Shown here: in pieces, positions 2,050-59,221 of the stretch
Layout: the number at the start of each line of letters is the position of its first letter
Position numbering within the stretch: the stretch's first letter is position 1
DNA from: a virus
Reading direction: 5' to 3' (one strand)
DNA length: 64,000 bases
Virus record (IMG/VR): IMGVR_UViG_3300047444_000577
Coordinates: 1 to 64,000 of that record
The notes under the pieces: model-generated
The model's input: only the letters and a program-made list of their open reading frames with translations
Told to the model about the DNA's origin: nothing
Database searches by the model: none
Position numbers and translations under genes: made by a program

Positions 2050-3366
2050 CTACTCCCCGAACTGCTGCTTGTTCTTCGGGGTCGCTGCGCTGTGGCCTTC
2101 CGTGGTCAGCGAGTGGTACTGCTGGACCCGACCGCTCGCACCCTTCCGCACCTCGGAGGTCAGCAGACCCCGCTCCTTCAGACCGTGCACCACGGCAGGG
2201 GCGGCCACCACCTTGCCCGCCAACTGGTGATGGGCGTTGTCGATGGCGTGCTGCAGGTGAATGGGAAGTGTTCCGCTCGCTGCAGGCCTGGCGGACCGGT
2301 TCGGCGCAGCCGTGGGAGCGGGCGACGGAGTGGTCCTCTTGGCTGCCTTGGGTGAGGCGGTCGGCGTCGCGGTAGGTGTGGGCGCGGGTGCGGACGGGAT
2401 GGTATGTCCGGGCTGCAGAGCGCTCTTGGGGAACAGGCCGGGCTGGGTCACCCGGGGGCCTGCCGACTGCGAGGGTGCCGGAGCAGGGGCCTGCTTGGCC
2501 GGAGCGCTTCTCTCCAGCGTGTTCGCCGAGAACAGACCCGGCTGGGACATGCGCGGCTTGGACGACGGCTGCACGGGGGCGCTGACAGGCACTGACCTCT
2601 GTGGAGCGGCCGGGTCTGCCTGTGCGCTCGGCGACTTCGGCTTGGCAGTGCGGGCCACGGGAGTCGCGGCGGCCTTGGAGGCGGGGGCCTTTGGGGTTGT
2701 CCCTCCCTGGGCGGCGAACGGCTTGTTCCCCTGTTGCAGGTCGACCGGCTTCTGGGAGGGAAATGACCCGTCCCACCCACCTGCGCTGCTGCGGGGTCGA
2801 GGGGGCTGCGGGGCAGCGGAAGCACGGCTCCCGAACTGCTCCTGGGAATGAACCGGTCCGGAGGGCGGGGTGGTCGAGGAGGCTCCCTGTCGGGGGCCGA
2901 ACGCTGCTGCGACGTCATCGTGGGCGCTGGGAATGTGTCGCTGCGCCTGGATCTCGTCCATCCGGGCGTTGAAGGTATGAAGCAGGTCGCCTGCCGCGCC
3001 GGAGTAGTTGGCCTTGTGCTCGCCGCGTAGGCGGTCGAGCGCCTCACCGGAGCGCTGCATGACGCGTTCGTGGTGGGCCTGGTCATTGGCCTCGGTCGTA
3101 GCGTCGCTGTGCCTGGAGGCGAGTTTGCCCCCCATCCTCGTGGCCCACGCGTTCTGCGCCGGGCCGGACATCTTGGTCTCGGAGCCGGGCAGGACGGACT
3201 GAGTTGTCGGTGCCTTCGGGGCAGCGGTGGCGGTGGCGGGGGCGGGGGCGGTCTGGCCAGTGCCCCGGCCGCGTCCGGCTGTCTTCTTGGCCCTGGACCC
3301 GAACTGCGGGGAGTGCAGGCGCGCGGCGAATGCGGCGGCGTACCCGTGGATCGAATCAGCGCTCAT
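2050..3366 (-). CDS. Ala/Pro/Gln-rich low-complexity hypothetical protein
   Basis: 438-aa ORF overlapping the upstream gene end; repeated QFG and QPGLF motifs. Confidence 0.7.
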   Translation of the reverse strand: MSADSIHGYAAAFAARLHSPQFGSRAKKTAGRGRGTGQTAPAPATATAAPKAPTTQSVLPGSETKMSGPAQNAWATRMGGKLASRHSDATTEANDQAHHERVMQRSGEALDRLRGEHKANYSGAAGDLLHTFNARMDEIQAQRHIPSAHDDVAAAFGPRQGASSTTPPSGPVHSQEQFGSRASAAPQPPRPRSSAGGWDGSFPSQKPVDLQQGNKPFAAQGGTTPKAPASKAAATPVARTAKPKSPSAQADPAAPQRSVPVSAPVQPSSKPRMSQPGLFSANTLERSAPAKQAPAPAPSQSAGPRVTQPGLFPKSALQPGHTIPSAPAPTPTATPTASPKAAKRTTPSPAPTAAPNRSARPAASGTLPIHLQHAIDNAHHQLAGKVVAAPAVVHGLKERGLLTSEVRKGASGRVQQYHSLTTEGHSAATPKNKQQFGE

Positions 3367-3655
3367 GGCTGGAGTCCCTTCGTATGAAGTAGAGGTAGCG
3401 GTGCCCGGCAGCCAGGGAGATCAGGAAGCCGATGTTGATGAGGGACCGGCTCGACGCTGTCGAGGTCCAGAACAGGGCGCAGAAGAGGGTCACGTTGGTG
3501 CTGTAGATGAACAGCGCTACGGCCAGCCAGCGCTCGATGGCGTGGAGTACGGGCCAGACCGGCAGGGTGGCCCGTAGCAGCAGGGCGGCGAATGCTGCCC
3601 CGGTAATCGCGTTGAGGATGCGACATACGCTGATGAACGTCAGGAAGGTGTTCAT
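3356..3655 (-). CDS. Small multi-pass membrane protein (99 aa)
   Basis: ATG at 3655 (MNTFLTFISV...) overlaps the upstream stop; about 3 hydrophobic segments. Confidence 0.65.
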   Translation of the reverse strand: MNTFLTFISVCRILNAITGAAFAALLLRATLPVWPVLHAIERWLAVALFIYSTNVTLFCALFWTSTASSRSLINIGFLISLAAGHRYLYFIRRDSSHER

Positions 3656-4146
3656 AGGGTCTCCAGGAAGGGGCGCTGGTCTTCTTCGCGTAGTGCTCGT
3701 TGTCGCTCCACCTCGTCGACCAGTTCCGACCAGGGGGTGACGGTCTCCCGGTAGTCGGGGCGGAAGCGGGGGGAGGAGTAGTTGGGGTGCAGGTAGTTCA
3801 GGACCCCGGTGCCCCGGCTCATCACGTGGGCGGCGATCTGCGGGTTGGGTTCGATCAGCAGCTCTACGTGGCATCCGGCCTGACGTAGCCGGGACAGTTG
3901 CTGCATCCGGGCCTCGGAGGGGTCCTCGGGGTCTCTCAGGTGCGGGACGCCGAGGTAGGTGTGCTTGTCGAAGCCGTTGACGTGCAGCCAGTGCTTGACC
4001 GCGTCGGTGTCGGTGCGGTCGGTCAGGACAGCGACCTTGTATGCCTCCGCCAGGCCCAGGTACAGCCGGTGGCCCTGGGTGATGACGCCTTCGCCGACTT
4101 CTTTGGCCAGCACGCCCTCCAGGACGATGGCCACGGTGGCGCTCAT
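3652..4146 (-). CDS. Degenerate HAD-like protein (164 aa)
   Basis: ATG at 4146 (ATGA overlap). TVAIVLEGVLA resembles HAD motif I without the Asp; VAVLT resembles motif II. Confidence 0.5.
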   Translation of the reverse strand: MSATVAIVLEGVLAKEVGEGVITQGHRLYLGLAEAYKVAVLTDRTDTDAVKHWLHVNGFDKHTYLGVPHLRDPEDPSEARMQQLSRLRQAGCHVELLIEPNPQIAAHVMSRGTGVLNYLHPNYSSPRFRPDYRETVTPWSELVDEVERQRALREEDQRPFLETL

Positions 4147-5138: not shown

Positions 5139-5162
5139 GAATATGAGTCTATCCGGAAATGG

Positions 5163-5252: not shown

Positions 5253-5660
5253 CTAGATCCCGTTGTGCGGCAGTTGGAGCCGATGGCGGATGGCGGACTC
5301 CTCCGCCTTGGCCTGCATGGCCTGGCCCATCTGCAGCATCTGCATCTGGGTCCGCTGGGCGGTCTCCATGACCTGGATGTCCTTCTGCACCACGGCGCAG
5401 GCCCCGAACATGTCGTCGGGGGTGGCCTGTCGCTGCGGGCGGAAGTCGGCGGAGAGGTCGTGGGTGGAGACGACCGCGCCGTCGGTGCCGATGACGACCA
5501 GGAACGCGGTGGTGACCGGGATGCCGGGGTCGATCTCGTCGTCGGTGGGAGGGTTGTCCTCGGCCATGCGCGCCAGAGCCTCCTCCTGCTCGGGCGTCAG
5601 GGTATGAAGCGTCTCGGCGGGGGCGGTGGGGGTGTTCTGGCCGATGATCGGAATGCTCAT
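5253..5660 (-). CDS. Hypothetical protein (135 aa)
   Basis: ATG at 5660 (MSIPIIGQN) preceded by a GGAG RBS. Confidence 0.7.
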   Translation of the reverse strand: MSIPIIGQNTPTAPAETLHTLTPEQEEALARMAEDNPPTDDEIDPGIPVTTAFLVVIGTDGAVVSTHDLSADFRPQRQATPDDMFGACAVVQKDIQVMETAQRTQMQMLQMGQAMQAKAEESAIRHRLQLPHNGI

Positions 5661-10534: not shown

Positions 10535-10544
10535 GCCGCCCCTC

Positions 10545-11171
10545 TCAGGCCTGCGCGAGGATGTTGTGGACGGTGGTATGAAGCGTGTTGAGGTCACCGT
10601 TGTTGTTCAGGTGCACGTCGAACCACCTGTCCGGGAGGGGCTTCTCCGACCGGTGGTCGTTGACCGCGCCGTAGCCGGGCCGCTCGACCTTGATGAGCAG
10701 CGCGAGGTTCTTGTCCAGGGCCTGGTGTTCGTTCTCGAAGCGCAGGTCAGTGAAGACGTACCGCTTCTCGGGGTTCAGGTTCTTGAAGGCGGCGTTGACC
10801 CACACGTCCTGGGAGATCAGTTCTCGGCCGACCTCGGTGCCGAGGACCTGGAGCATGCGGCGGATCTCGCCGTCGAGGCTGCGCTTGGCCTCTTCCCAGC
10901 CGATCTCGTCCACGATGTCCTTGACGCGGAACTCGCGGCCGTAGGAGTCGCATCGGACGATGGGGTTGAGGATGTAGAGGGCGTTGCGCAGGACGTCGGC
11001 GAAGGCGCGGCGCTCGTAGCCGTACTCGGCCAGGATCTTGGCGATGGCGTCCTTGCCCGTGCCCGGGTAGCCGTGCAGGCCGACGAGCCTCGGCAGCCGG
11101 TCCAGGATGACGTCCTGGCGGAAGGCCTTGTTCAGGGCCGCGTCGGTGATGGTGGCGGTGTTGGTGGTCAA
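10545..11171 (-). CDS. Deoxynucleoside monophosphate kinase
   Basis: P-loop GYPGTGKD, AFAD, RRMLQVLGTEVGR, TDLRFENE. Confidence 0.85.
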   Translation of the reverse strand: MTTNTATITDAALNKAFRQDVILDRLPRLVGLHGYPGTGKDAIAKILAEYGYERRAFADVLRNALYILNPIVRCDSYGREFRVKDIVDEIGWEEAKRSLDGEIRRMLQVLGTEVGRELISQDVWVNAAFKNLNPEKRYVFTDLRFENEHQALDKNLALLIKVERPGYGAVNDHRSEKPLPDRWFDVHLNNNGDLNTLHTTVHNILAQA

Positions 11172-11611: not shown

Positions 11612-12318
11612 GGGGCGACCCTTCCGTTGGCGTTCCAGGCGACGTAGGTGTGCGGGAAGTAGTTGGCGAACCGGTACTCCATGTGCCGCGCGACCATCTC
11701 GATCTCCCGCAGCGGGTAGGACGGGAAGTGCGCGTCCGCGTCCGTGGTGCGCAGGCTCAGGAAGTGCATGAGCGAGCGCGGGTTGCAGGTGGCGTAGAAG
11801 GAGGTGAAGAGGTTGAGCGGCAGGACGTTGCGGGCGACCTCCCTGGCGATTCCCGCGCGGAGCATCTGCTCGTAGGCTCCCCAGGCGACGTGGATTACCT
11901 CGTCGTTCACCCGGTCCAGCAACTCGTGCTGGTCAGGGGTGCCGGGAACGAAGGAGTACTCCCCCGGCTTGCCCTTCTGGCGCAGGTTTCGCTCCGGGCC
12001 GGGTACGTAGAAGACGGGCTCCAGTTCCTTGTACCGGCCGCTGGTCTCGTTGTAGGACCATCCGACGCGATGACGCATGAACTCTCGGGCCACGAAGATG
12101 GGGGCCTCGACCAGGAAGGTCATGGAGCCGTGTTCGAACGGGCTGCCGTGGCGGTTCTTCATCAGGTAGTTGATGAGTCCCTGGGCCTCCCCCGACTCCG
12201 CCGAAGCGGAGCCGAGGGTGGACACGCGGGCCGCCTTGCAGATCAGAGTGTCGCTCCCGGCCAGGGAGTCCGGTACGAGCGCCGCCGAGACGTCGGAGCG
12301 GGTCTTGAGGAGGGTCAC
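11608..12318 (-). CDS. thyX: FAD-dependent thymidylate synthase
   Basis: HGSPFEH and REFMRHRVGWSYNETSGRY (ThyX motif RHRx7SxR). Confidence 0.95.
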   Translation of the reverse strand: MTLLKTRSDVSAALVPDSLAGSDTLICKAARVSTLGSASAESGEAQGLINYLMKNRHGSPFEHGSMTFLVEAPIFVAREFMRHRVGWSYNETSGRYKELEPVFYVPGPERNLRQKGKPGEYSFVPGTPDQHELLDRVNDEVIHVAWGAYEQMLRAGIAREVARNVLPLNLFTSFYATCNPRSLMHFLSLRTTDADAHFPSYPLREIEMVARHMEYRFANYFPHTYVAWNANGRVAP

Positions 12319-12992
12319 TTGGACGCCTTCACCTGGCTCTTGGGCTTCTCATCGCCCTTGATCGTGACCTTGAAGTAGGAACCGGCCGCGACGTGGAACA
12401 GGATGATGCCCTCGGGGTCCATGAAGCCCGGTGCGATGAGGGAGCCTTCCGACTCCAAGGTATGAAGCGCGTCGTCGACAGCCGCGTTGAGGTACTGGCC
12501 GTCGAAGACCGAGATCACTGGGACCACGGTCACCTCCGGCGGCGCAGGCTTGGCCTTGGGGAAGGTCTCGGTGTACCTGTCGTCGATCTCGGGGTCGCGG
12601 ACGTCGTACCAGCGGTCGACGTTGAACAGCGCGAAGCGCTTCTCACTCAGGCCGTAGCCGGTCTGGATGCCGGAGCCGAACCACTCGCCGTAGTGCTTGC
12701 CGACGCCTAGCGCGACCAGTCCCTCAGCGTTGGCCCAGACCCAGGCCGCGAAGCCGAAGTTGTCGTTCTCGGGGCTGAGCCAGCGGTTGCGGCTACCCGC
12801 CCTGACTGCGTAGGCAGTGCCGTTCGCGAATACCAGTCGCTTCGGGATGTTGGGGTCCTGCGCCGCTCCGTCGGCCTCGACGATATCGATCAGGCCGTTG
12901 GTGCCGTTGATCTTCTCGGTCGCGATGACCCTGCGGTGGAGCCGTGGGATGGGCCGGAACTTGGGGTAGGTCTCGGTAGAGGTGTGCGTCAT
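12315..12992 (-). CDS. RNA ligase (Rnl2-like)
   Basis: ATEKINGTN (motif I), GSRNR, YGEW, FALFN, PEGII. Confidence 0.75.
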   Translation of the reverse strand: MTHTSTETYPKFRPIPRLHRRVIATEKINGTNGLIDIVEADGAAQDPNIPKRLVFANGTAYAVRAGSRNRWLSPENDNFGFAAWVWANAEGLVALGVGKHYGEWFGSGIQTGYGLSEKRFALFNVDRWYDVRDPEIDDRYTETFPKAKPAPPEVTVVPVISVFDGQYLNAAVDDALHTLESEGSLIAPGFMDPEGIILFHVAAGSYFKVTIKGDEKPKSQVKASK

Positions 12993-15601: not shown

Positions 15602-15737
15602 AAGCAGCCTCCAGGAGATCGGCGAGGACAGTGAACTTCTCGTGGGAGCGGTCCTGGCGGCGCGACTGGCGCAGGCCGAGGATGAGGATGTACAGGGCTG
15701 CGACACCCAGAAGGGCGGCGAGCACGGCCGCGATCAT
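15519..15737 (-). CDS. Small membrane protein
   Basis: ATGA overlap with the recA stop; N-terminal TM helix; 3' end overlaps the next gene. Confidence 0.5.
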   Translation of the reverse strand: MIAAVLAALLGVAALYILILGLRQSRRQDRSHEKFTVLADLLEAAYGGKHVEEEPEAGTSGRETPRRNGERR

Positions 15738-16927
15738 GCGGCCTCGGTATGAAGCGTCTCGGGGTCCGGCTCGGCTGCCTTCGATCGGCGGGTGACCTTC
15801 TTGGTGCCGGTGTTCTCGGCGGCCTCCAGGTCCTCCTCGGAGATGCTCCGCTCGTCGGCGTGGGTCGAGGCCTCAAGCACCAACTGGTAGACACGGTCCA
15901 GGAGTTCCGGGTCCTCGCGCAGCGCGGTGAGGGTGGTCTCCTTGCTGTGCCAGCGCAGTACCGGCTTGCCCTTGGCGTCGTACTCGCCGTTGTGGATCTC
16001 GTAGTACGCCCCGGCGCGCTTGAGGACGTCGAAGAGGATCCCCATGGTCATGATCTCTTTGGCGGTGTCGTACTCTCCGCGCCGGAAGTTCAGGTAGGGG
16101 GCGGACCGGAAGTAGGCGTCGATGGTCGCGATCTGCTGCGGGGCAGCGGACTTGTTCTTGATCGTCTTGACCTTGATGACCTGGCCGACGTTGACCTTGC
16201 CCTTGCCCGGCCGGGCCTCGACGATGAACATGTCGCGGCGGACCTCGACGCGGGTGTAGAAGGCGTAGTTCTTGGCGTTGCCGCCCGGCGTGGTCGTCGG
16301 GGTACCGTGCGGGCTGAACTTGCCGATGGCGTCTCGGTATTGGTTGATCACGATGCCTAGCATCGGCCGGTCGGTGGCGTCCGTCAGGGACCTCTTGGTC
16401 GCCGCGCCGCTCTTGCGGAAGAACTTGCCTGTCAGGCGTGCGCCGAGAGCCATGGTGGCCTCGTCCATGTCCTTTTCCGACTCCTCGTCCGGGATCAGTG
16501 CCGGGTAGGAGTCGAGGACGATCATGTCGACCGAGCGGGACGTGGCGAAGTCCAGCATGGTCTGGTAGGCGAACTCCATCGCCTGGGTCGGCACGACGAC
16601 TACGCGGTCGTTGTCGACGCCCAGGGCCTCGGCCTGGTCGGTGTCGTAGTGCTCGGCCGCGATCCACAGGCAGGTGAAGTCGGGGTCCTGCTTCTGGTTG
16701 GCTGCCAGGGTCTTGTAGACGACGAAGGTCTTGCCGTGGGACTCGCGTCCGATGACCTCGACCCACTGGTTGCCAGGCCAGCCACCGCCGAGGGCGATGT
16801 CGAGCGAGAGGGAGCCGGAGGTGAAACGCTTGGCCACCCTCATGTCGGAGGCGAAGCAGATGGTTCCCGCCCCCTGCTCCTTGTTGACCCTGGCGATGAG
16901 CGCGAGGGCGTCCTTGTTGATGGTCAA
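15734..16927 (-). CDS. recA: RecA/UvsX-like recombinase
   Basis: SGSLSLDIALGGG, Walker A GRESHGKT, IVLDS, INQYR, TTPGGNA. Confidence 0.92.
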   Translation of the reverse strand: MTINKDALALIARVNKEQGAGTICFASDMRVAKRFTSGSLSLDIALGGGWPGNQWVEVIGRESHGKTFVVYKTLAANQKQDPDFTCLWIAAEHYDTDQAEALGVDNDRVVVVPTQAMEFAYQTMLDFATSRSVDMIVLDSYPALIPDEESEKDMDEATMALGARLTGKFFRKSGAATKRSLTDATDRPMLGIVINQYRDAIGKFSPHGTPTTTPGGNAKNYAFYTRVEVRRDMFIVEARPGKGKVNVGQVIKVKTIKNKSAAPQQIATIDAYFRSAPYLNFRRGEYDTAKEIMTMGILFDVLKRAGAYYEIHNGEYDAKGKPVLRWHSKETTLTALREDPELLDRVYQLVLEASTHADERSISEEDLEAAENTGTKKVTRRSKAAEPDPETLHTEAA

Positions 16928-16986
16928 CAGGGGCCCCCGTAGGTATGAAGCGTCACGCAGCAGTACTCCTAATCCGATAAAGAAGA

Positions 16987-17027
16987 ACCGGTAGTTCCAA
17001 TACCATATCTGGCAGGGAACTACCGGT
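16987..17027 (-). terminator. Probable intrinsic terminator after RNR gene
   Basis: ACCGGTAGTTCC...GGAACTACCGGT stem followed by TCTTCTTT on the minus strand. Confidence 0.6.
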
Positions 17028-17079: not shown

Positions 17080-19029
17080 TCAGGCCGCGACCAGGTCGAC
17101 CACGTCACAGGCCCCGGCGACACACGCGAGTTCCTGGCTGCCGGTGGTCTGGTCGGTCACCTCGTAGTAGGACAGGTCCGACCACTCCACCCGTCCGGAC
17201 GACTCCACCAGCGCCTCGTACAACTGCTGCGTGCACTCCTCGTAGGGGGCCTGCACGTAGGTGTGGTCGGAGTAGGGCAGGAAGGAGACACCGGAGATCT
17301 CATCCAGGTGCTCCCACACCCACGCCCCCACTTCCACCCACTCCTCCGGGCGCACCGAGATGGTCACCGACGGCTTGTGCTCGCACCAGAACCGCTGATA
17401 GGTCAGCCAGGTCTCCAGGTGCTCGATCGCCGAGAGGTCGTCGCGCACCACGGCGTTGTCGGAGGCGCGCTGCGGGAAGGCGAACACCCACGCGGAAGCG
17501 TTGTAGGCGTCCTCCTCGTGGGGGATCTCCGCGTCGATGAGCACGGAGGAGATCGGGTCCTTCTTGTCCACGCGCACGCGGCGGACGTAGAACCGCGCGT
17601 GCTTCGGGTGCAGGCCGGACTCACAGTCCACCAACTGGCTGACGGTGCCGGACGGCTTAACGCAGGTGATGGCGTCGCTCGCCGGGATACCGAGCCGCTT
17701 GGCCTCGACCGCATTGGCCTGGCGGGCCACCAGTCGGAGGTCGACCAGGTAGAGCGCGGTGAGGCCACCGTTCCTGCCGTTGATGCGGTGATTACCGTAC
17801 ACCCCGGTCAGACTCACCCCGAGCAGCCGCTCCTCCTCCGCGTTCTTGCGGAACTCCTCGCGCAGGTAGGGGTAGTCGGTCAGGGTCGACTGCCAGGTAC
17901 CGAGGACGGTGGCGAGCCGGACCTTGCGCTCCAGGTCAGGGATGGTGTCCTCCGGCCGGACCACAACCTCGGACAGGTTGCAGAAGGAGAACGGCTTGAG
18001 AATGATCTCCGAGCACGGGTTGGTCCCGTAGTCGACGTCCGGGCTGCGGTGCCCGTACAGGGCTGCCTGCCTCTGGGCTGCGCCACGGTGGAAGATGCCC
18101 CGCTCACCGCTGCCGGAGGCGATGATGTTGTCCCACTCCTTGTTGAAGGTGTCGGCGTGCATGCCGTCGGTGTAGACGGCGGAGTTGTTTGCCAGGGCAC
18201 GGTACGGGTGCTCCTCCCACCACTCCCCTGACTTTGCCTGCGCCATCTCCTGGTCGTCCAGGTCGGACAGGGAGATCATCGCCGACCGACGGACGCCGCC
18301 GACGACGACCACGGAGGCGATCTTGCATGCCAGGTCGTGGGCCTCGATGGGCCGGAACTTGCGACCCTTGGCGCGGTGGAACAGGTCGACGGTGAACTGG
18401 AACAGGTCGTCGAGCGGAGCGGGCCCGGAGGCACGGCCTCCGAAAGTATGAAGTCGTGCTCCGGCCGGACGCACCTTGGTCAGGTCCCATCCGGGGATGA
18501 ACCCCTCCCACAGCCAGTGGAGCAGGTCGCGGAACGCTAGGGCCCAGCCCTCCTTGCTGTCCTGAACCACGATGCGGAGCGGCCTGTCAGCCGGGATGAG
18601 CAAATCCGGCACTGCTGGCAGTTGGTCGATGTACTGCTTCTCGACGCTGTAACCGACCCCGGTGCCGTTCATGAGGATGTACAGCAGCTCGTCGAAGGCC
18701 TTGGCGTCCTGCAGGGGCAAGTACGAGCAGTTGAACCCTGCGATGTTGGAGCGCTCCAGCGCCTCGCCTGCGGTCATCAGCGCGCGCATGGAGGGCATGA
18801 TCTCGTGGTTCAGGATGGCCCGGCGGACCTCGTGCACAAGACCGGCGTCGGCGATGTAGTTGTGCTCGATGAACAACTGGTTGGCCATGAAGGCCAGGTA
18901 TCGGTCGACCGTCTCCGTCCAGGTCTCCCGCCGTCCCTTGTCCGCGTCCCAGCGGGCGTAGCGGGACTTGGCGATGAAGGAGCGGAAGGGGTCGGCGATG
19001 TCACCGGAGGCGGTCAGCAGGTCAGTCAC
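17080..19029 (-). CDS. nrdJ: Class II (B12-dependent) ribonucleotide reductase
   Basis: GTG at 19029. PSMRAL, FNCSY, GGVRRSA, TNPCSEI, TCVKPSGT and C-terminal CVAGAC; no small subunit nearby. Confidence 0.9.
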   Translation of the reverse strand: MTDLLTASGDIADPFRSFIAKSRYARWDADKGRRETWTETVDRYLAFMANQLFIEHNYIADAGLVHEVRRAILNHEIMPSMRALMTAGEALERSNIAGFNCSYLPLQDAKAFDELLYILMNGTGVGYSVEKQYIDQLPAVPDLLIPADRPLRIVVQDSKEGWALAFRDLLHWLWEGFIPGWDLTKVRPAGARLHTFGGRASGPAPLDDLFQFTVDLFHRAKGRKFRPIEAHDLACKIASVVVVGGVRRSAMISLSDLDDQEMAQAKSGEWWEEHPYRALANNSAVYTDGMHADTFNKEWDNIIASGSGERGIFHRGAAQRQAALYGHRSPDVDYGTNPCSEIILKPFSFCNLSEVVVRPEDTIPDLERKVRLATVLGTWQSTLTDYPYLREEFRKNAEEERLLGVSLTGVYGNHRINGRNGGLTALYLVDLRLVARQANAVEAKRLGIPASDAITCVKPSGTVSQLVDCESGLHPKHARFYVRRVRVDKKDPISSVLIDAEIPHEEDAYNASAWVFAFPQRASDNAVVRDDLSAIEHLETWLTYQRFWCEHKPSVTISVRPEEWVEVGAWVWEHLDEISGVSFLPYSDHTYVQAPYEECTQQLYEALVESSGRVEWSDLSYYEVTDQTTGSQELACVAGACDVVDLVAA

Positions 19030-19561: not shown

Positions 19562-19988
19562 CGATTTGCACTCCGTCCGTGTACGAGATGAGACCCATGT
19601 CGAGAAGGTTCGCGAGCACCGCGTAGACAGCGCTCCGAACAACGCGGGAATGGTGATGCTGCAGCCCTAGGGCCGTTTCCTCATCCACCTGATTGCCTGA
19701 GTTAACCAGCATAGCGCTGGCAGTAATGCCGGAAACCAATGGAACGAGGATCTCCAGGAGACCGGACATCGGTTCCAGATTTTGGAGCCTTTGATGGCTT
19801 GCGACGTGCTCCATCTCGGCGACGTCCGCACTGTCCGGGATCAGCCCCATCAGGGGAAGCATCTCCGAGACCGAGGGGCAGGGAACGATGTCCCATAGCA
19901 GCCGCTTGACCAGCATCTGCGGGGAGTACAGGACGACCTGCGGCTCCGCAGTCTCCTCGTTCTTCTTCTTGCGCCTGAATATGCTCAC
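19542..19988 (-). CDS. Hypothetical protein (148 aa)
   Basis: GTGA overlap with the polA stop. Confidence 0.65.
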   Translation of the reverse strand: MSIFRRKKKNEETAEPQVVLYSPQMLVKRLLWDIVPCPSVSEMLPLMGLIPDSADVAEMEHVASHQRLQNLEPMSGLLEILVPLVSGITASAMLVNSGNQVDEETALGLQHHHSRVVRSAVYAVLANLLDMGLISYTDGVQIGEQLLG

Positions 19989-22221: not shown

Positions 22222-23031
22222 TCAGTCGTTCAGGATCTCGGCGGCGATGGCCTTGAGTTCCGCGCGGGTGTTGACCTGGACCGCGTTCTCGTCGTACGCC
22301 TTGGCCTCGAACTCCTCCAGGTCCTCGTCGGTCAGGGGGTCGGTGTCCCAGTCCCCCTCCAGGTCGCGCTCCTTGACCGGCCGGATGAAGTAGGTGGTCT
22401 TCTTGTTCTTGCGTTCCTTGCTGACCGAGAAGTAGAGGTCGTCCCGGTTGATCGGGGCCGTCTTCTTGTTCTTGGAGAAGTTCTTGAGGATGTCGGCGAT
22501 GGTCGGGCCGACCTTCCACATCTTCAACTCCGGTGACTCCGGGTCGGTGAAGTCGACGACGTTGAAGCACACCTGCTGGCTGGGCTTGTCCCCGGCGTCA
22601 TCGCACAGGGGGCACTTGCTCTCCAGGCAGGTCCAGGAGCGCTTGCCCTGGCGCTCGATCCAGTGCTGGAGGTAGACGAAGAACGGCTCGTCGTCGAGGA
22701 ACTTGACGATCACCTCGTCGTCGGTGACCTTGAAGTCCGTCGGGAAGGAGGAGGTGGCGGACTTGGTCTTCTCGTAGGAGCCCCAGCCCTTTCCGCCGAC
22801 CTTCGGAGCGGGTTCGTCGTCCTCGTCGTCGTCCTCGGAGGAGCGTCGCGACCGGCGGGAAGGCGCAGCGGCCTTCTCAGTATGAAGCGACTCGCGGCGC
22901 GAGCCCCGGCGGGAGCCGCGTGCCGGGCGCTCATCCTCCTCATCGTCCTCGGGGAGGTTGGTGTCCTCCGGCTCCGGACTGTAGGCCTCGGTGTCGCGGG
23001 TGGTGCGGCGGCGGGTGAGCGTGCGAGGCAT
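22222..23031 (-). CDS. Single-stranded DNA-binding protein (gp32-like)
   Basis: VKFLDD..F....HW...TC...CPLC core; position between helicases and polymerase. Confidence 0.65.
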   Translation of the reverse strand: MPRTLTRRRTTRDTEAYSPEPEDTNLPEDDEEDERPARGSRRGSRRESLHTEKAAAPSRRSRRSSEDDDEDDEPAPKVGGKGWGSYEKTKSATSSFPTDFKVTDDEVIVKFLDDEPFFVYLQHWIERQGKRSWTCLESKCPLCDDAGDKPSQQVCFNVVDFTDPESPELKMWKVGPTIADILKNFSKNKKTAPINRDDLYFSVSKERKNKKTTYFIRPVKERDLEGDWDTDPLTDEDLEEFEAKAYDENAVQVNTRAELKAIAAEILND

Positions 23032-23271
23032 CTAGTTGGTCTCCTGCTGGTAGAGGTGGATGAAGGAGTTGCCCTCATCGGTGTTCACGCGGGCCTCTTC
23101 GAGGTCGGCCGCGAGGGACTGGTCCATGAACTGGTCGGCGATCCGGTCGAGGTCCTGGAGGGTCTTCGCCTTGGGGAAGTCGTCGGTGCTGATGTCAGCC
23201 TCCGCGCCGAATTCCACCCATTCGAAGTTGCCCATGCTCACGTGGAACTTGCGGGTCTTTTTGATCCTCAC
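23032..23271 (-). CDS. Hypothetical protein (79 aa)
   Basis: GTGA overlap; MRIKKTRKFHVSMGNFEW... Confidence 0.65.
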   Translation of the reverse strand: MRIKKTRKFHVSMGNFEWVEFGAEADISTDDFPKAKTLQDLDRIADQFMDQSLAADLEEARVNTDEGNSFIHLYQQETN

Positions 23272-31909: not shown

Positions 31910-32047
31910 AGGCGGATCCGATAAGTATGAAGCGGTAGTGCCATGGTAGTTTGGCTCACGTTCCGGGGTTTGTGGTGGGCTCCGGGGTGGGCGAAGGCCC
32001 CAGCACTGGCTTGAGGTTTCCTCGCCGGTACTGGGGCCTTCGCGTTG

Positions 32048-47667: not shown

Positions 47668-47833
47668 TTTCAGCCTCAGCCACTCGCCTATTTCGCTGCG
47701 CCCTGAACCATTCCACCCAGTGCAGACGCTCGCGCACGGACAACCGGCGTATTTCGCTGAGGCTCCATGCCGGGCTCAGTTCCACTAGTTGCTCGTATTC
47801 GAAATACGTGTCGTGGTAGTTACAGGCCCTGAA
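47657..47833 (-). CDS. Tail assembly chaperone, C-terminal (frameshifted) part
   Basis: +1 frame relative to 47820-48686; WSLSEIRRLSVRERLHW is typical of a second chaperone frame; no obvious RBS/ATG of its own. Confidence 0.6.
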   Translation of the reverse strand, partial: FRACNYHDTYFEYEQLVELSPAWSLSEIRRLSVRERLHWVEWFRAQRNRRVAEAENGG

Positions 47834-48686
47834 ACAGATCCCCCGCACTGATGTACAAGGGGACCTCCTTACCGCACGCTTCATGCGTGAACTTGATGTC
47901 ATTGTACTGAGGGCCGGGTTGCTTTTGCTCAATGGCATCCAGGATCGACCGGCGGTCGACGATCCCCAGAGAGCGCGCGAATTCAGCATTGCTGCTGACT
48001 GCCGTCTCGGTGCCATTTGCCGTGACGACGGATATCAGACACCGGGAAAGCAGAAGGGTGTCCTGCTCGGACGCGGTGGTGCGCTCGGCGACAGCCAGTA
48101 CAGCGTCCTGGTCCGAGCCGACGGGGAGCCGGACGAACGCCTTTCTTCCGTTGCGCAGGGGCACCTCGAAGATGCGCTGGGAGGGGTCGTCCATGCGGCG
48201 CACGGGGATCTCGTCGAGCGTGACCGACAGCCGGAACTCCTCGCCGCAGTGCATGCAGGAGAACTTGTCCCAGACGATCTCGTCGCCGAAGGTGGCGCGC
48301 CGGATCTCCAAGAGCAGGTTGTCCCGGTCGCCGAGCAAGAGGTTGCTGAGCACGGACTGGCTGGCCTGCTGATCGCCGATCGAGACAGTCCCGCAGGCCA
48401 GGAGCGTGGAGACGAACTTACCCAAACCGGCCTGCCTGGCCTTGGCGATGGCTTCCTCGTCTGCGCCGGTCAGTTCGCGAACCTCGGCGTCGTACCGAAC
48501 TGAGGCGAAGTCCCCACCCGAGACGTAGCCTCCCGGCAGGCGGAAACTGCCACCTGCCGGGAGGGGGATCTCGGGCTTGACGACCTGTCCCTCCCCGTTC
48601 TGCATCGCCGCCGAAATAGCGGCATTGGCGAGACCGGGGTTCATGAGGGGGTTGGTGTACCCCCCGGTATGAAGGTCGTTAGCCAC
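47820..48686 (-). CDS. Tail assembly chaperone / gp26-like protein
   Basis: VRELTGADEEAI, GDRD.LLL.IRRATFG, CMHCG; lies between tube and tape measure genes. Confidence 0.75.
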   Translation of the reverse strand: MANDLHTGGYTNPLMNPGLANAAISAAMQNGEGQVVKPEIPLPAGGSFRLPGGYVSGGDFASVRYDAEVRELTGADEEAIAKARQAGLGKFVSTLLACGTVSIGDQQASQSVLSNLLLGDRDNLLLEIRRATFGDEIVWDKFSCMHCGEEFRLSVTLDEIPVRRMDDPSQRIFEVPLRNGRKAFVRLPVGSDQDAVLAVAERTTASEQDTLLLSRCLISVVTANGTETAVSSNAEFARSLGIVDRRSILDAIEQKQPGPQYNDIKFTHEACGKEVPLYISAGDLFQGL

Positions 48687-48723: not shown

Positions 48724-49566
48724 TTAGAAACTAACGTCTTGCGTTCCCGTACTGGTAGCCAGGGCGAACTCGAACCCTTCGTGGGCCAGGGTCATCTGCT
48801 GGACGATGATCGCGTTGGCTCCGGCGTCGAGGTCGGACCAGGCTATTGCGGTCGGCCACGCGTTCCAGACGCGGAACGAGGCCTTGACCGGCGGGTTCGG
48901 AACGGTGACCGGGAAATCCAGGACGTTGATGGTGACCATCTGCCGGAACTCCGCACCGGGCTTGCCAGTTCCCGTTCCCTGGATGACGGTGAACAACTGC
49001 CGCATCCAGTCCATCATCTGCGTGTCGCCGATCGCCATGCCCTTGGACAGGGTGATCGGAGCGAAGTCGGACTGACCCATTCTGTTACCCCTCCGATTCC
49101 TCGGAGTGGGCCGATCATTTCTGTCGGCCTCTTACGCTCTCGCGCAAGATCGGAACTATATCTTGATCCCGGAGGGATCTCCCGTACATAGTCTCTGAAC
49201 CTTCCCCATTTGACAGGGGCTCGGCTGCTGATTTTCCCTACCCTGATCTTTTCGAACCATCACGCCTAGGCTTTCGCCTTACGTTGTGGTGACCAGGTCT
49301 AACAGGACGTTCCAGCAATTCTCGGGATTATCCTGCGCAACTTACGCTGCGAGGGCCCAATCGCTCATAGGCATCTTCTGCGTGGTCGTATTCATACCGC
49401 CTTCGCGGTATGGAATGACCTCGGTCGTGACGTTGAGGCCGGACACGGACATGAAGCCCATGCGGGCGAAGCCCTTGATGTCCGGGTGCTGGATCTGCAC
49501 CTGGAACTTGAAGTTGCGGAGGGGGTCCGTGGCGATGTGCCCCACGGACGGCGTGACCTTGGCCAT
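48724..49566 (-). CDS. Tail tube protein (T4 gp19-like), spliced: join(49369..49566, 48724..49077), 183 aa
   Basis: Exon 1 DPLRNFKF...GF..VSGL...YREGGMNTTTQKMP joins in frame to exon 2 GQSDFAPITLSKG...NAWP..DLDA...LAHEG. Confidence 0.9.
49078..49368 (-). ncRNA. Group I intron (291 nt, ORF-less) in tail tube gene
   Basis: 5' exon ends in U (CCU|); intron ends in G. P AAUUGCUGGAA, Q AAUCAGCAG, R GUUCAGAGACUA, S AAGAUAUAGUUCC. P1 GCCU/GGGC; P10 GAUU/GGUC. Confidence 0.93.
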
Positions 49567-51900: not shown

Positions 51901-53841
51901 CTAGACGGGGTACCAGACACCGCCGATGGACGACAGCGTCACATGCTGCCCGGGGGTATTCAGCACATACGTGCCCACCGTTCCCCCGATGGTTTCGCCG
52001 GACGCCGCATTGAGGGTGACCGTATTGGCGGTCGCGTCCTTCTTGACCACCCGGTATTCCATCGGAGCCGACACGGCCGTAGGAACACTGACAGTCAGGT
52101 TCCCTCCGGAGGCGTCCACCCCCAGCGTCCGGTCGATCGCGTTGAGCGTGGCAGCGGCGTTGGTGGTGCGGGTGCTGTTGGGCAGCTTCCCGTTGGTCTG
52201 CAGCATCCCGCAGGCCGGGTAGGTCAGGTTGAACAGACTCGGATCGAACATACCGAACCAAGTGACATGCCCCAGTGCGGCAGCCATCGTCCCGGCGGAG
52301 TCGGCGTCGATCGTGGGGTTGGCTGACTCCGTGTCCAGGACGCCGACGGTGAGGAAGGGGCCATAACCCTCGGATCCCTGTCCGCGCAGGTAGATCTGAC
52401 GAGAACACGCCTCAATGCTGGCGTGGTTGACGACGATGCCGTGGGTGGCCCCCACACTCCCCCAGTAGGTGCCCTCCGCCACCAGCCCCGCCCAGTGGTA
52501 CAGCAGCCTGATGGAGGTGACGTACGTGTGCTCGGTGGCCCACAGTCCATAGGTGAAGCCACTGATCGTGACGTCGTCGACCATGCAGCGGTCGTTGTTG
52601 CCCGAAGCGGGCATCAGCACACCCGCGCACAGCCCCGTGCCCAGCAGGCTGGAGTTGGCGAAGTCGTTACCTGCCACCGTGCCGGTGGTGCCGATACCGA
52701 CACGCCGCAGGCCCAGGTTGGCGATACCCCGGCCGTCGATGCCGGAAGGGTGCAGACCATACGTGGTGTGCGGGACCAGGATCGTGATGTCCTCGAAGTC
52801 CACCGCGAGGTTGGAGAACACGCCAGGTGCCTGCCCGTACCCGTTCGTCGGGGTGGGACCACCGATCACGGATATGTATCCGTTGGCGTTGATCGCAGTG
52901 CTCTGCGCACCGGGGCCGGAGAACGGGGGGAGGAACGACACCAGGGTGGAGCCGCTGAACTGCGGGACGGTCGCGTTCCAGTGGGGGACGGCGCAGCCAA
53001 TGCCGAAGCCCTTCCAGCGCAGAGCGTTCTTGTCGAGCGTGTCCAGGTTGTTCGGCAGCGTGATCTGCGCGTTGCCCTTGGTGGTGCCTCCCGTCACCGG
53101 CTGGCCGTCGATGCCGTAGAACTGGCCTCCTGTGGGGGGCGGTACCAGGATCGTGGCAGTCTTGGAGTTGGCCACGGCCCAGGCGTAAGCGGCGTCAGCG
53201 CAATTCTGGAAGGCCGCGCGGTCGCCCGTTGCGATCAGCACCCGAGCACCGGTCACGGTCACCGCCGCGCTGAGGGAAAGCGTGACGGATGAGGGACTGA
53301 TGTACTGGGTGATCTGCGCGACGTGGGAGACGACACCCACCCCGGCAGCACCGTGGACGATGACCCACTGGTTGACCGACTGCGGCGTGAAGGGGGCGCT
53401 ACTGGGGAGGTTGAGTACGTTGGTCAGAGAGTTGATGCCCGCGTCCATGTAGATGCGGCCATCACCCTTGGCCCCGTAGTCCAGGACGCTGAACTCCCAG
53501 GGCCGGATCTTGGAGTACCTGGTCGCCGCGTCCGCCTTGGCCGCAGCGATGTCGGCCAGTTCCTGGGTGCCATCGACCTTGCTGCTAGCCAAGCCTGAGA
53601 CAGTGGTGTGAAGCCCCGCCAGGTCAGCAGCCGTGGTGTTGTGACTGCTCTGCAGAGCAGCGACGTCAGCGGCTTCCTGCGTTGTGTCTATCTTGCTGGT
53701 GGCCAGGCCGGTCACCGTCGTATGAAGCCCGGCGAGGTCGGCGGCCGTGGCGATCTCGTTGTTGTCCAGGGTGGTCAGGTCGGCGTTCAGCGCGACGTCC
53801 CAGCCGGTGGAGCCCTTCGCGGGCAGCGACACATTGCTCAT
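51901..53841 (-). CDS. Tailspike/fibre with pectate-lyase-like beta-helix
   Basis: ATG at 53841; SVLDYGAKGDG...DRAAFQ..D cap motif; tandem N-terminal helical repeat. Confidence 0.7.
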   Translation of the reverse strand: MSNVSLPAKGSTGWDVALNADLTTLDNNEIATAADLAGLHTTVTGLATSKIDTTQEAADVAALQSSHNTTAADLAGLHTTVSGLASSKVDGTQELADIAAAKADAATRYSKIRPWEFSVLDYGAKGDGRIYMDAGINSLTNVLNLPSSAPFTPQSVNQWVIVHGAAGVGVVSHVAQITQYISPSSVTLSLSAAVTVTGARVLIATGDRAAFQNCADAAYAWAVANSKTATILVPPPTGGQFYGIDGQPVTGGTTKGNAQITLPNNLDTLDKNALRWKGFGIGCAVPHWNATVPQFSGSTLVSFLPPFSGPGAQSTAINANGYISVIGGPTPTNGYGQAPGVFSNLAVDFEDITILVPHTTYGLHPSGIDGRGIANLGLRRVGIGTTGTVAGNDFANSSLLGTGLCAGVLMPASGNNDRCMVDDVTISGFTYGLWATEHTYVTSIRLLYHWAGLVAEGTYWGSVGATHGIVVNHASIEACSRQIYLRGQGSEGYGPFLTVGVLDTESANPTIDADSAGTMAAALGHVTWFGMFDPSLFNLTYPACGMLQTNGKLPNSTRTTNAAATLNAIDRTLGVDASGGNLTVSVPTAVSAPMEYRVVKKDATANTVTLNAASGETIGGTVGTYVLNTPGQHVTLSSIGGVWYPV

Positions 53842-56367: not shown

Positions 56368-56422
56368 TCAGTTCTCCGGATTCGGAACTCGTAGCAGTGA
56401 ATCAGTACAAGGCTAACGAGAA

Positions 56423-56454: not shown

Positions 56455-56510
56455 ATCGGGTCTTGATGCTGTCACCAACTCAGCAGGCGGGGCCTTGCGG
56501 CGGCGCTAAC

Positions 56511-58343
56511 TCAGTTGGTCTCGGCGATCAGGACGGCCTGGTCGGTGATGAGGCCAAGGCCCCAGATCGCGTACCAGGCGAGTGCGTGCTCTCGCATTCT
56601 GTTACCCCTCCGGTCTCCCGGAGTGGGCTGGTCATTTCTGCCAGCCTCTGCATGTCTCCATGCAGATCCGAACTATATCTTCACCCGCGTGGGGTGACCC
56701 GTACATAGTCTGTGAACCTTCCCCAGCTAAAGGGCTCGGCTGCTGATTATCCCTACCCTCAGATTTTCAAGCGTTCACGCTCAGACTTTCGTCTCACGTT
56801 GTAGCTCTGAGGTCTAGCAGGACGTCCCAGCAATTCTCGGGTTGTTCACTGACAGATTGCTCTGTCAGGCGGCCAAAGTGAAACCGAAGTCGAGGATGCC
56901 GCCGTCGCGCAGTTCCACCGGGAGGGAGATCGCGTGCCCGAAGGCGTTGTCGCCCAGGAAGATGCTCTGGTAGACCGTCTTCCCCAGTGCGTTGGTGAAC
57001 TGCTTCACCTGCGTGGTCTCGATGAACACCACGTCGTTGAGGCGGCCGATCTCGCCGATCATGAACGAGCCCGGGGCCGCGTACTTGGTGACCTCGATCC
57101 ACTCGGGGTCATCGCGCAACTGCCGCGACTGGTGCGGGTGGACGAACGCCACGTACGTGTCCCCCAAGCGGGGGACGTTCTTGGTGCTCAGTGTCTCGGT
57201 GGCGTCCTTGGTGAGGGCCGCCGTGAAACTGAAGGTGCCGTCCAGCAGGTCAGTGCCGGTGGCGGCGGTGCCGTGCGAGTACTGCGCCATGACGCCGAAC
57301 GCGCTGGTCTGGGCGTACTTGTTGTAGCCCCAGATCTTGCTCGACGCCTGCAGGAGGGTGTCCCGCGCGGACTGGTCGAGGTAGAGCGCCATGTTTCGCG
57401 TTCTGTTACCCCTCCGGATTTCTCCGAAGTGGGCTGGTCATTTCTGCCAGCCTCTACAGGTTTCCCTGTAGACCCGAACATCTCTTGACCCTCTCGGGTC
57501 TCCCGTGCATGTTCTGTGAACCTTCCCCAGTTAAGGGGCTCGGCTGCTGATTGTCCCTACCCTCTTCTTCTCAAACCATCGCGCTCGGGCTTTCGCCCCA
57601 CGCTGTGGTGAAGAGGTCTAGCAGGATGTTCCAGCAATTCTCGGGATTTTCACTGAGAGGTTTCCCTCTCAGGCGGCCAAAGTGAGACCGAGCAGACGCG
57701 AGGCCGAGGCCATCACGTCGTCGAAGGACGCGTTGAGCAGGAGTTCGGAGACGGCGACCGCGTAGCCGTGCTCAGCCACCGTGATGGAGAACTGAGAGGC
57801 CGACAGGGCGTTGGTCTGCATCCGAACGCCTTCGACCAACTGGGAAGCGGCTCCCAAATTGTTGTACCTCATGAAGTTGATTTGGAGACCGGGCTGAACA
57901 CCCAACTCCGTCTTCTTCACGGCGAACTGCTCGACAATTCGCGATTGTTACCCGCTGGCTGCGGGGCCAAAGCATTTCTGTCTGGCTCTTGCACTTTTCC
58001 ATCGTGCAAGTTCGGACTATATTTTCATCTCCAGTACCGACCTACTGCCCATCTAAAGGCTGGAACTGTTGGAGATGCCTCGCGTGTAGTCTCTACGGAG
58101 TCCCAGATGTTGGGTTCCCTCGGTATTCCCCATTCGCCCATTTGGAGGGGTTCACCGATACAGCGTGGTTCTCACTGACCCATCACTGGATCAGGCGGCC
58201 CGAGACCGGAGGATCGGCATGCTCTGGAACAGGATCTCCTTGGACCAGATGGTCTGGATCGCCGCACCGAGCGTGCTGTTGGCACCCGAGTAGTTCGTCG
58301 GCGAGGCCGACAGGTTCGGGGTACCGGTGATTGCACTGGGCAT
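56511..58343 (-). CDS. Major capsid protein (N4-gp56-like), spliced: join(58205..58343, 57687..57934, 56883..57398, 56511..56594), 328 aa
   Basis: Exons of 139+248+516+84 nt join in frame: ...MPILR-F-EQFAVKKTELG...SRLLG|RNMALYLD...GILDFG|REHALAWYAIWG...ETN*. AAAAGGA RBS; follows the scaffold gene. Confidence 0.92.
56595..56882 (-). ncRNA. Group I intron 3 of major capsid gene (288 nt, ORF-less)
   Basis: Boundaries CGGU|...G|CGA. P AAUUGCUGGGA, Q AAUCAGCAG, R GUUCACAGACUA, S AAGAUAUAGUUCG; IGS GGCCG. Confidence 0.93.
57399..57686 (-). ncRNA. Group I intron 2 of major capsid gene (288 nt, ORF-less)
   Basis: Boundaries CGGU|...G|CGA. P AAUUGCUGGAA, Q AAUCAGCAG, R GUUCACAGAACA, S AAGAGAUGUUCG (compensatory P7). 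Confidence 0.93.
57935..58204 (-). ncRNA. Group I intron 1 of major capsid gene (270 nt, ORF-less, different core type)
   Basis: Boundaries CGGU|...G|UCGAG. P UAUCGGUGAA, Q AAUACCGAG, R CGUAGAGACUA, S AAAAUAUAGUCC; P10 CUCGG/UCGAG. Confidence 0.92.
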
Positions 58344-58375
58344 GTGTCAGTCCTTTTGTTGCGGGTACTCGTGGA

Positions 58376-59221
58376 TTACGAGTACAGTCCACGCTGGTTA
58401 CCGGCCGACTGGCCGATCCCCAACTGGCCCCGAATCTTGGCGTATTCCGACATCGGCATGTCCTTCAGGTCGCTGACGGAGTACGACTTGTGTCCCGGTT
58501 CAGAGTCCATTGGTCCAGTCGTGGCATATCCCGTAGGGCTGACTCCACGCATCTGCGAGCGCTGCTGAATCGCAGCCTGCTGAACAGACTCAAGAATAGC
58601 CTGAGTCTTTCCCTTGAGGGTATTCAGGCTTTCCTCGACCTGCTCCGGCGAATTGCCGGTCACGAGGTCGAGAAGTTCTGGGGCGATGTTGTCCTGCTCC
58701 TCGCCGACGCGGCGCTGGATGTAGGACTGCAGGGCGTTGAACTCCTGCTCCTTCGCGAAGAGGGCGCGCTCGTTCTCGCGATCCGCCTCGAACTGGGCGA
58801 AGCGGCTGTTCCACTCCGCCTCCTTGGCCGCCAGGAGGTCCTTGGCGGACATCTCCTGCTCGGCCTGAGTGCGGGCGGCCTCCTGGGCCTGGCGCTGCCG
58901 CTCTGCCTCGGCCTCCTGGGCCTCCTCCCGCGCCTTGCGCTGGGCCTCGATCTCGTCCAGGAACTTCTTGTTCTGGGTCTCGACCGTGTCCAGGCGCTTG
59001 TACAACTTGTCCTTCTCCTCCTGCCGCGCCCGCTCGATGTCCGCAGCAGTGAAGCGCGGCTCAGCGGGGGCCGGAGTCGGCGGGGGGACGACCGGGATGG
59101 TGATGACCGGCTCGCCGGGCTCAGGTGCGCCGCCAGCGATGTTGTAGATCGGCGAGCCGTTCTTGCGGTGGCCCAGCACGGTCATGGCGGGCAGGGAAAT
59201 GCCCGAGGTATGAAGCGGCAT
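58376..59221 (-). CDS. Capsid scaffolding protein
   Basis: ATG at 59221 after AGGAG; long coiled coil; C-terminal MPMSEYAKIR..LG; lies between portal and capsid genes. Confidence 0.8.
   Translation of the reverse strand: MPLHTSGISLPAMTVLGHRKNGSPIYNIAGGAPEPGEPVITIPVVPPPTPAPAEPRFTAADIERARQEEKDKLYKRLDTVETQNKKFLDEIEAQRKAREEAQEAEAERQRQAQEAARTQAEQEMSAKDLLAAKEAEWNSRFAQFEADRENERALFAKEQEFNALQSYIQRRVGEEQDNIAPELLDLVTGNSPEQVEESLNTLKGKTQAILESVQQAAIQQRSQMRGVSPTGYATTGPMDSEPGHKSYSVSDLKDMPMSEYAKIRGQLGIGQSAGNQRGLYS

Follow-up and report, generated by a model that had tools for sequence, protein, structure and literature searches.

We describe an 8-nt word that recurs throughout the genome of a temperate Streptomyces phage (virus record IMGVR_UViG_3300047444_000577, hereafter G000; 98,440 bp, 64.6% G+C). 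The window considered here comprises the first 64,000 nt of this record. The word is GTATGAAG on the + strand of the window; nearly all G000 genes are on the - strand, and in mRNA it reads CUUCAUAC. Its orientation is locked to that of the genes and, within genes, it is locked to a single reading frame as CTT-CAT-AYN; it is conserved at the nucleotide level, and copies that fall between called genes are enclosed in leader mini-ORFs (small open reading frames). Moreover, it is followed by a position-locked hairpin, is specific to the phages, and is changed by one letter in a sister clade. The interpretation we favour, with roughly even confidence, is that the ribosome, while translating, reads the word as an RNA signal jointly with a putative lineage-specific factor.

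Strand, reading frame and nucleotide-level selection

Twenty-two exact copies of GTATGAAG have been found in the window, all of them on the + strand, compared to a mean of 0.41 and a maximum of 2 in dinucleotide shuffles. This is the number and the single orientation given in the original prediction, which also placed eighteen copies in the left half; indeed, 18 of the 22 are to the left of 33 kb. In the whole genome 31 copies are forward and one is reverse, and the word is by far the most enriched octamer. Its one-mismatch variants are present at the chance level, except for the change C>T at position 8, that is CTTCATAT, with two copies in G000, one of them in the window, and 7-8 copies in close relatives.

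The single reverse copy (65880) is in frame in a small + strand ORF upstream of the + strand gene of the large serine recombinase, and a reverse copy in the + strand recombinase-leader ORF is found in relatives of G000 as well. Hence, the orientation of the word tracks the gene and not the genome strand, in other words, it follows transcription. The recombinase gene (66126-68159, +, with a DUF4096 tail) and the tyrosine integrase gene (64653-65732, -) are divergent and are located just past the window.

The reading frame is equally restricted. Nineteen copies of the window had been assigned to CTT-CAT-ACN codons (Leu-His-Thr), one (3382) to another frame, and two (16943 and 31925) to regions outside the called genes, and we confirm all these assignments; genome-wide, 27 of the 28 in-gene copies read CTT-CAT-ACN. 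A codon-usage model predicts 0.02-0.03 copies in frame 0, 0.17 in frame 1 (TTC-ATA) and 0.04 in frame 2 (TCA-TAC), whereas 27, 1 and 0 are observed. Five related genomes show the same restriction: 127 genic copies have CTT-CAT-AYN in frame, a single one is off frame, and none is antisense. The enrichment also holds against a codon-aware null: with synonymous codons shuffled and the proteins kept, the mean is 1.2 and the maximum 6, compared to 28 observed. Leu-His-Thr is the top over-represented tripeptide (30 occurrences, 3.8 expected), and the three occurrences that use other codons are the chance number. Among tripeptides of the proteome that could be converted to the word silently (11 F-I-[LPHQR] and 9 [SPTA]-S-Y), the word is present in one.

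The frequency of about one copy per gene, suggested originally, is an overstatement, as about a quarter of the genes have one. The copies are biased to gene 5' ends, with the median relative position of 0.21 (Kolmogorov-Smirnov p=0.006). The consensus extends beyond the octamer: the codon before the word is preferentially S-S-R, and 81% of sites have a purine at -1 (43% expected), while downstream +8 is mostly C and the stem described below usually opens with G at +11 and +12.

Selection on the nucleic acid, which had been proposed together with an undescribed cis-signal, is borne out by comparison with relatives. In the close relatives G004-G006, whose helicase protein is 83-84% identical to that of G000, CTTCATAC is exact at orthologous sites: the rare T-ending codons CTT-CAT are kept, and the wobble base of the threonine codon drifts (ACC/ACT/ACG). 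Relatives lacking the word encode LH(T/P/A) by the usual codons CTG-CAC. The more distant relative G001 has eight copies, all in frame 0, at non-orthologous places, and at the sites of G000 it has unrelated codons, e.g., AGC-CGC-GCG or AGG-CAC-AAG, in ungapped alignments; thus, the word arises by substitution in existing coding sequence. A mobile mini-insertion, similar to miniature inverted-repeat transposable elements or byp elements, was considered and rejected, since homologues align gap-free through both the word and the hairpin. The claim of an undescribed cis-signal under nucleotide-level selection is upheld.

The two window copies outside the called genes had also been taken to mean that the frame is irrelevant. 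They do lie outside called genes, but both are in frame in conserved mini-ORFs, and with a lock of 127:1 this part of the claim does not stand. A small ORF is built around each of these copies, and the word is apparently translated there. The TGA codon of the recA leader overlaps the TTG start of recA (TTGA), a Shine-Dalgarno sequence, AGGAG, is located 9 nt upstream, and the peptide is kept as M(T/R)LHTYGGPC* (the asterisk denotes the stop) in G004-G006 and in 9 further contigs. The second leader is coupled to an ORF that was originally called the initiator and has no Pfam match; in G004-G006 this leader is kept as M..(S/P)LHTYR...*. More such mini-ORFs are observed in relatives, e.g., MRLHTRAVA*, MKTIRLHT* and VKRLHTY....

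The region between the reductase gene and the recA leader also contains an inverted repeat of 12 bp, ACCGGTAGTTCC...GGAACTACCGGT, with a T-rich run after it (window 16965-17015, -, -29.9 kcal). This element is conserved in relatives; it resembles a terminator, and possibly could be an operator instead.

The downstream hairpin and the one-letter switch

In G000, the 40 nt following the word fold with -13.2 kcal, compared to -10.3 kcal in in-frame genic controls (p=1.7e-4). With offsets counted after the 8-mer, so that offset 3 is 2 nt past the third codon, 34% of 148 sites and 13% of controls have the beginning of the 5' arm at offset 3; for offsets 2-4, the proportions are 61% and 30%, respectively. 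According to pairing probabilities, AUAC-N is unpaired (about 0.8) and positions +11 to +14 are paired. Consensus folding of 48 orthologous site groups, each with at least 4 distinct sequences, yields a summed energy of -545 downstream of the word compared to -148 in upstream controls, and pairing begins exactly at offset 3 in 22 of these groups, compared to 2 of 48 upstream controls. The hairpin thus starts 5 nt past the codon that follows CUU, within the 5-9 nt of frameshift stimulatory structures.

Individual sites provide examples of altered stems. At the DnaB helicase site (29291), GGCCCTCC/GGAGGGCC corresponds to GGCCCTGC/GCAGGGCC in relatives, at the cost of a Glu-to-Gln change; at 22880, GAAGGC/GCCTTC of G000 corresponds to GGAGGC/GCCTCC, and the stem register shifts between relatives; at 48667, GGGGGGT/ACCCCCT corresponds to GAGGGGTT/AACCCTCT. 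For 17 orthologues of the DNA polymerase site (21921), 94% of cells are paired, compared to 29-56% in slid controls; three pairs are changed on both sides, which is reached by 1 of 500 shuffles, and the U-G pairs, which on the other strand would be C-A mismatches, are invariant. Folding energies weakly favour the sense over the antisense strand (p=0.03), a comparison biased by the choice of hairpins. The loops differ at every site, Rfam contains no family for the cassette formed by the word and the hairpin, and the copies do not correspond one to one with predicted terminators or operons.

G000 is a temperate phage of the myovirus type, with both a tyrosine integrase and a large serine recombinase; its tail sheath shares 47-49% identity with that of the Streptomyces phage BRock group, and its relatives include proviruses and a prophage of Streptomyces sp. 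NPDC002088. Genomes G004-G007 have 28-39 sense copies of the word and 0-1 reverse copies each, and in BRock, pSt2308, G002, G008, G012 and G013 the word is absent. In a lysogen, 41 sense copies are present in the 100-kb prophage compared to about 67 on both strands of the other 10.6 Mb; the excess outside the prophage is at most about two-fold and is seen on both strands, hence the host makes little or no use of the word.

Contigs with RecA about 80% identical have no CTTCATA and carry CTTAATAY (Leu-Asn-Thr/Ile) instead, with 9-15 copies per 20 kb. We refer to CTTCATAY and CTTAATAY as the CAT and AAT types, respectively. The complete provirus G009, of the AAT type, has 40 sense copies and one reverse copy of CTTAATAY, and all 35 of its 35 genic copies are in frame. 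Out of 18 alignable sites of G000, 12 are CTTAATAY at the same codons in G009; in the reverse direction, the ratio is 13 of 22. At the DNA polymerase site, the flanks are otherwise identical between the two types. In a RecA tree (a quick, one-gene tree of mosaic genomes), the AAT type forms one clade (support 95) nested in the CAT-type phages, its sister being the CAT-type NPDC002088 prophage. When this prophage was compared with both types, the signal was swamped by mosaicism.

The NPDC002088 prophage contains a tandem site (L187:16147-16175), with one CTTAATAC located 21 nt upstream of CTTCATAC, while the counterpart in G009 (63013-63044) has two CTTAATAC copies; the former may be a relic of the word switch. 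Genome G011 (L160-L164; RecA 58% identical) has another in-frame word, CTT-CTA-G, with 28 copies in frame 0. Other NNT-CTA words, GAT-CTA and GTT-CTA, are also enriched there, and the genome encodes tRNA-Leu(UAG). This may be a related codon-pair phenomenon.

Table 1. Copies of the word, the position 8 variant and leader mini-ORFs in the window. Offsets are counted after the 8-mer.
Position	Strand	Feature	Codon or frame	Gene	Hairpin	Details
1674-1681	-	variant CTTCATAT, CTT-CAT-ATN (Leu-His-Ile/Met)	frame 0, from gene start 1960	431-1960	1640-1672, offset 1, -18.4 kcal
2975-2982	-	motif	129	2050-3366, no Pfam match	2944-2968	CTTCATACC kept in G004-G006
3382-3389	-	motif, the only off-frame genic copy	TTC-ATA-CGA	16 nt upstream of ATG of 2050-3366	weak, -4.8 kcal	chance level for its frame (0.17 expected)
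5602-5609	-	motif	18	5253-5660	5571-5596
10576-10583	-	motif	197/208	dNMP kinase, 10545-11171	10537-10572, offset 3
12460-12467	-	motif	176	RNA ligase, 12315-12992	12441-12456, offset 3
15747-15754	-	motif	392/397	recA, 15734-16927	15723-15746	13 nt before stop
16924-16956	-	recA leader mini-ORF, holds copy 16943-16950	10 codons			GTG-ACG-CTT-CAT-ACC-TAC-GGG-GGC-CCC-TGT-TGA (MTLHTYGGPC*)
18446-18453	-	motif	193	class II ribonucleotide reductase, 17080-19029	18413-18442, offset 3	CTTCGTAC in G006
21921-21928	-	motif	14	DNA polymerase A, 19985-21967	21890-21917, offset 3
22880-22887	-	motif	49	22222-23031
23620-23627	-	motif	33	MerR-like, 23268-23723	23589-23615
24861-24868	-	motif	48	24689-25009	24820-24855
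26766-26773	-	motif	6	SNF2 helicase (Pfam), 25145-26788		gain specific to G000; relatives have CTG-CAC-ACG or CTG-CAC-CCG (LHT/LHP) at the same codon
27436-27443	-	motif	205	primase, 27093-28055	27402-27432, offset 3	AGC-CGC-GCG in G001
29291-29298	-	motif	85	DnaB helicase, 28279-29550	29254-29287, offset 3, -22 kcal
30618-30625	-	motif	26	AAA/IstB-like, 30041-30700	30583-30617, -25.5 kcal
31906-31944	-	leader mini-ORF MALPLHTYRIRL*, holds copy 31925-31932		upstream of ORF 30824-31909		TGA overlaps GTG of the ORF (GTGA)
32319-32326	-	motif	301	32048-33226		CTTCATAT in G006
41987-41994	-	motif	168	baseplate hub/spike, 40063-42495	41963-41984, offset 2
48667-48674	-	motif	5	T4-type baseplate, 47820-48686 (MANDLHT...)		orthologous copy also in 75%-identity contigs L009, L010
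53720-53727	-	motif	39	51901-53841	53698-53716, offset 3
59208-59215	-	motif	3	58376-59221 (MPLHT...), just downstream of portal gene	59171-59204, offset 3	AAG-CGA-CAC in G001

Two further observations concern the genes of the window. The RNA ligase family gene bears a motif copy (Table 1), and there are relatives with a second ligase-like ORF (in G004, near position 666); an RNA ligase family gene usually signals tRNA repair. In the tail-tube/capsid region, three Rfam group I intron matches score above the gathering threshold (window 49131-49417, 56648-56890 and 57454-57694, -), and around them the gene caller yields only short exon-like ORFs: 48724-49080, 49342-49566, 56511-56597, 56865-57392, 57669-57920 and 58191-58343.

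Interpretation and rival explanations

The strand lock, the hairpin and the U-G pairs of the sense strand indicate that the signal is in RNA, whereas the frame lock and the mini-ORFs indicate that it acts in translation. The coordinated switch at dozens of sites, in turn, points to a sequence-specific trans factor, as ribosome kinetics alone would not need coordination. Ribosome pausing and a trans factor are thus inferences, and so is any direction assigned to the effect. The cassette on the sense strand would be comprised of (S-S-R) CUU CAU AYN, a 2-nt spacer, and a 5-11-bp hairpin of arbitrary sequence, and it would function only if translated in that frame. If CUU occupied the P site of the ribosome and CAU the A site, the foot of the hairpin would be 5 nt past the A-site codon, at the mRNA entrance; such spacing beyond the A-site codon is the geometry of known pausing and frameshift stimulators. 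Ribosomes would dwell at the cassette, and a sequence-specific trans factor, probably phage-encoded, would then decide on continued translation. About a quarter of the phage genes, mostly those of replication, recombination and the virion, would be jointly throttled or licensed in this way, and the same control would cover the coupled mini-ORF leaders of recA, the putative initiator and the serine recombinase.

The biological role is a matter of speculation, and by analogy it may be a translational counterpart of stoperators, providing silencing or immunity with a lineage-specific word. In a more specific version, to which we attach only tentative belief, a lineage-specific factor, produced by the prophage or at an early stage of infection, would arrest ribosomes at the in-frame word, kept by the hairpin at the mRNA entrance, silencing or timing about 30-40 lytic genes, and the change from CAU to AAU would create a new immunity or specificity group.

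Several results weigh against the ribosome-read signal. No reader has been found among tRNAs, guide-like complements, clade-specific proteins, and ProQ_C-like or SpoVS-like proteins. In particular, the only 6-nt complement of the word on the sense strand is the recombinase-leader copy, which leaves no guide-like candidate. The tRNAs of G000 are Asn, Leu(CAA) and Pro, and none of the phage tRNAs follows the distribution of the word. About 20 clade-specific proteins emerged from phylogenetic profiling for a reader, and those scanned have no informative Pfam match except for ThyX and an integrase; one candidate of 408 amino acids resembles a YonJ-type metallophosphoesterase. SpoVS-like proteins were rejected, being also present in relatives lacking the motif, and so was the ProQ_C-like protein, which occurs in the NPDC002088 prophage as well as in G000, G004 and G005, whereas G006 and the AAT-type genomes lack it. 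As regards the hairpin, pair changes on both sides, taken over all groups, are not above the upstream controls (33 compared to 35 pairs), so that the hairpin rests mainly on its position, its stability and individual examples; several copies have weak hairpins only. Out-of-frame stops after the word are not enriched in either shifted frame (+1, -1), hence there is no sign of a frameshift-abort design. Finally, the frame lock of the AAT type could be a coding constraint, with TAA in one frame and TTA in another.

Two of the molecules encountered in this search deserve a description. The ProQ_C-like protein has 126 amino acids (G000 93603-93977, that is L101:9603-9977, -) and matches the Pfam family Phage_ProQ_C_like, an RNA-chaperone-type domain. 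An odd 86-nt tRNA-His(GTG), with G-1/C73, a 6-bp anticodon stem and a long variable arm, adjoins the phage tRNA-Asn in G004 (101737-101822), and is also present in G005, G006, G025 and L189:12645-12730. Among the genomes that hold the tRNA cluster, it is found in five of the seven CAT-type and in none of the five AAT-type ones, having been lost in the G000/G026 lineage and throughout the AAT-type clade. As it is missing from G000 and the sister genome G026, this tRNA is not required as a reader.

Among the alternatives, the one that survives best, although we consider it rather unlikely, is an RNA site for a sequence-specific RNA-binding protein or endoribonuclease, acting independently of the ribosome in mRNA processing, stabilisation or decay. 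An unpaired AU-rich word beside a GC-rich hairpin would suit such a protein, and the lineage switch of the word fits a protein of altered specificity. The frame lock would then be a coding by-product, which is conceivable for the AAT type, whose other sense frames yield TAA or the near-forbidden TTA (two TTA codons in G000). However, the CAT type is ancestral on the RecA tree and its other frames are freely codable, with 46 ATA and 58 TCA codons compared to 62 non-motif CAT and 110 CTT codons, yet the ratio is 127:1. The eight non-orthologous gains of G001 are also all in frame, and the mini-ORFs that enclose the intergenic copies have a Shine-Dalgarno sequence and a start codon of their own.

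Less probable still are DNA stoperator-like sites, at which an immunity repressor would recognize the oriented 8-bp duplex or the non-template strand and block RNA polymerase. The comparison with stoperators made in the original prediction stands as regards the logic, since each genome has about 30-40 sites that share one orientation relative to transcription, and the consensus switches between sisters (cf. PMC6550527); the phage is temperate, with a tyrosine integrase and a serine recombinase, and has prophages as relatives. The duplex-DNA mechanism does not: the frame lock, the mini-ORFs and the position-locked hairpin with U-G pairs in the sense strand would be purposeless for a duplex site. 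Moreover, 8 bp are short for a repressor site, and the sites are found at any depth in ORFs.

Programmed +1 frameshifting or bypass, with tRNA-Leu slipping from CUU to UUC to yield alternative products, seems very unlikely. The word is frame-specific and starts with CUU, as do the known +1 frameshift heptamers which it resembles, those of prfB (CUU-UGA-C) and Ty1 (CUU-AGG-C), and the hairpin is 5 nt past the codon that follows CUU. On the other hand, there is neither an X_XXY_YYZ repeat nor a slow or stop codon after CUU, and no nearby stop or other design feature is seen in the shifted frames. The ORFs run on in frame 0 for hundreds of codons, homologues align through the site, the AAT type would slip onto UUA, and the word is present in at least 30 genes of unrelated function.

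A polar DNA signal for Chi-like recombination, packaging or a translocase, which the over-representation of an exact octamer on one genome strand might suggest, can be practically set aside, as the lone reverse copy follows the gene direction, the frame lock, hairpin and mini-ORFs also oppose it, and the host excess, at most about two-fold and on both strands, is unlike that of a host Chi. Thus, among the options listed originally, only the one at the mRNA level is retained, while the Chi-like, packaging or translocation, and duplex-DNA stoperator options leave the frame lock, the mini-ORFs and the RNA hairpin unexplained.

Significance and comparison with known systems

To our knowledge, genome-wide control words of phages act on DNA (operators, stoperators, late promoters) or on untranslated RNA. 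In the literature, the octamer strings match only primer noise, and a topical search yields a paper on UUA/bldA in phages and no description of the word. If the ribosome-read signal is correct, phage genes would be regulated at an additional, new level, by a word that has an effect only if read in frame by the ribosome. Each genome has 30-40 copies of this word, which comes with a hairpin of its own and has been replaced throughout by another version in a sister lineage; the CAU and AAU types would, in that case, be a pair of possibly orthogonal translational switches for Streptomyces engineering. Moreover, the word explains the strong Leu-His-Thr excess and the rare-codon clusters that otherwise resemble annotation noise, and identifies as real the small leader ORFs in front of recA, the putative initiator and the serine recombinase.

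The closest parallels are found in four systems. Stoperators of Cluster A mycobacteriophages (L5, Bxb1) are 13-bp duplex-DNA sites at which the immunity repressor stops RNA polymerase (PMC6550527). In both cases, dozens of asymmetric sites in a temperate phage have one orientation relative to transcription, and the consensus varies between lineages, implying a co-evolving reader. However, the word described here has 8 nt, lies in ORFs in one frame, is followed by an RNA hairpin and is enclosed in mini-ORFs when intergenic, and no repressor has been linked to it.

Frameshift and pause cassettes (prfB, Ty1, and the dnaX heptamer with a 3' stem-loop) share a frame-specific codon string, starting with CUU in two of them, a short spacer and an arbitrary stem-loop. 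These cassettes occur one per special gene and yield a product in the new frame, whereas the 30-40 copies described here are in ordinary genes that stay in frame 0, and they have neither a slippery repeat nor a designed stop. The bacterial selenocysteine insertion sequence (SECIS) is similar in that a specific in-frame codon in an ORF is combined with a hairpin just downstream, and in having a dedicated trans factor, such as we propose here. On the contrary, SECIS recodes UGA and has a conserved loop bound by SelB, while in the phage cassettes the loops are not conserved, there is no stop codon, and no special tRNA or elongation factor tracks the word.

The last parallel, and the nearest in concept, comes from Streptomyces, where control by the rare UUA codon and bldA is known, a UUA-triggered bypass has been proposed for the terminase gene of phage phiHau3, and the adpA leader is a mini-ORF with a rare codon just upstream of the main start codon (PMC10732093). 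There too, rare codons and nearby RNA structure in a Streptomyces phage form a translational control point. The phiHau3 case differs in having one or two UUA sites and a coding gap in one gene, compared to an exact 8-nt word found genome-wide, with no coding gap and with UUA not read in frame.

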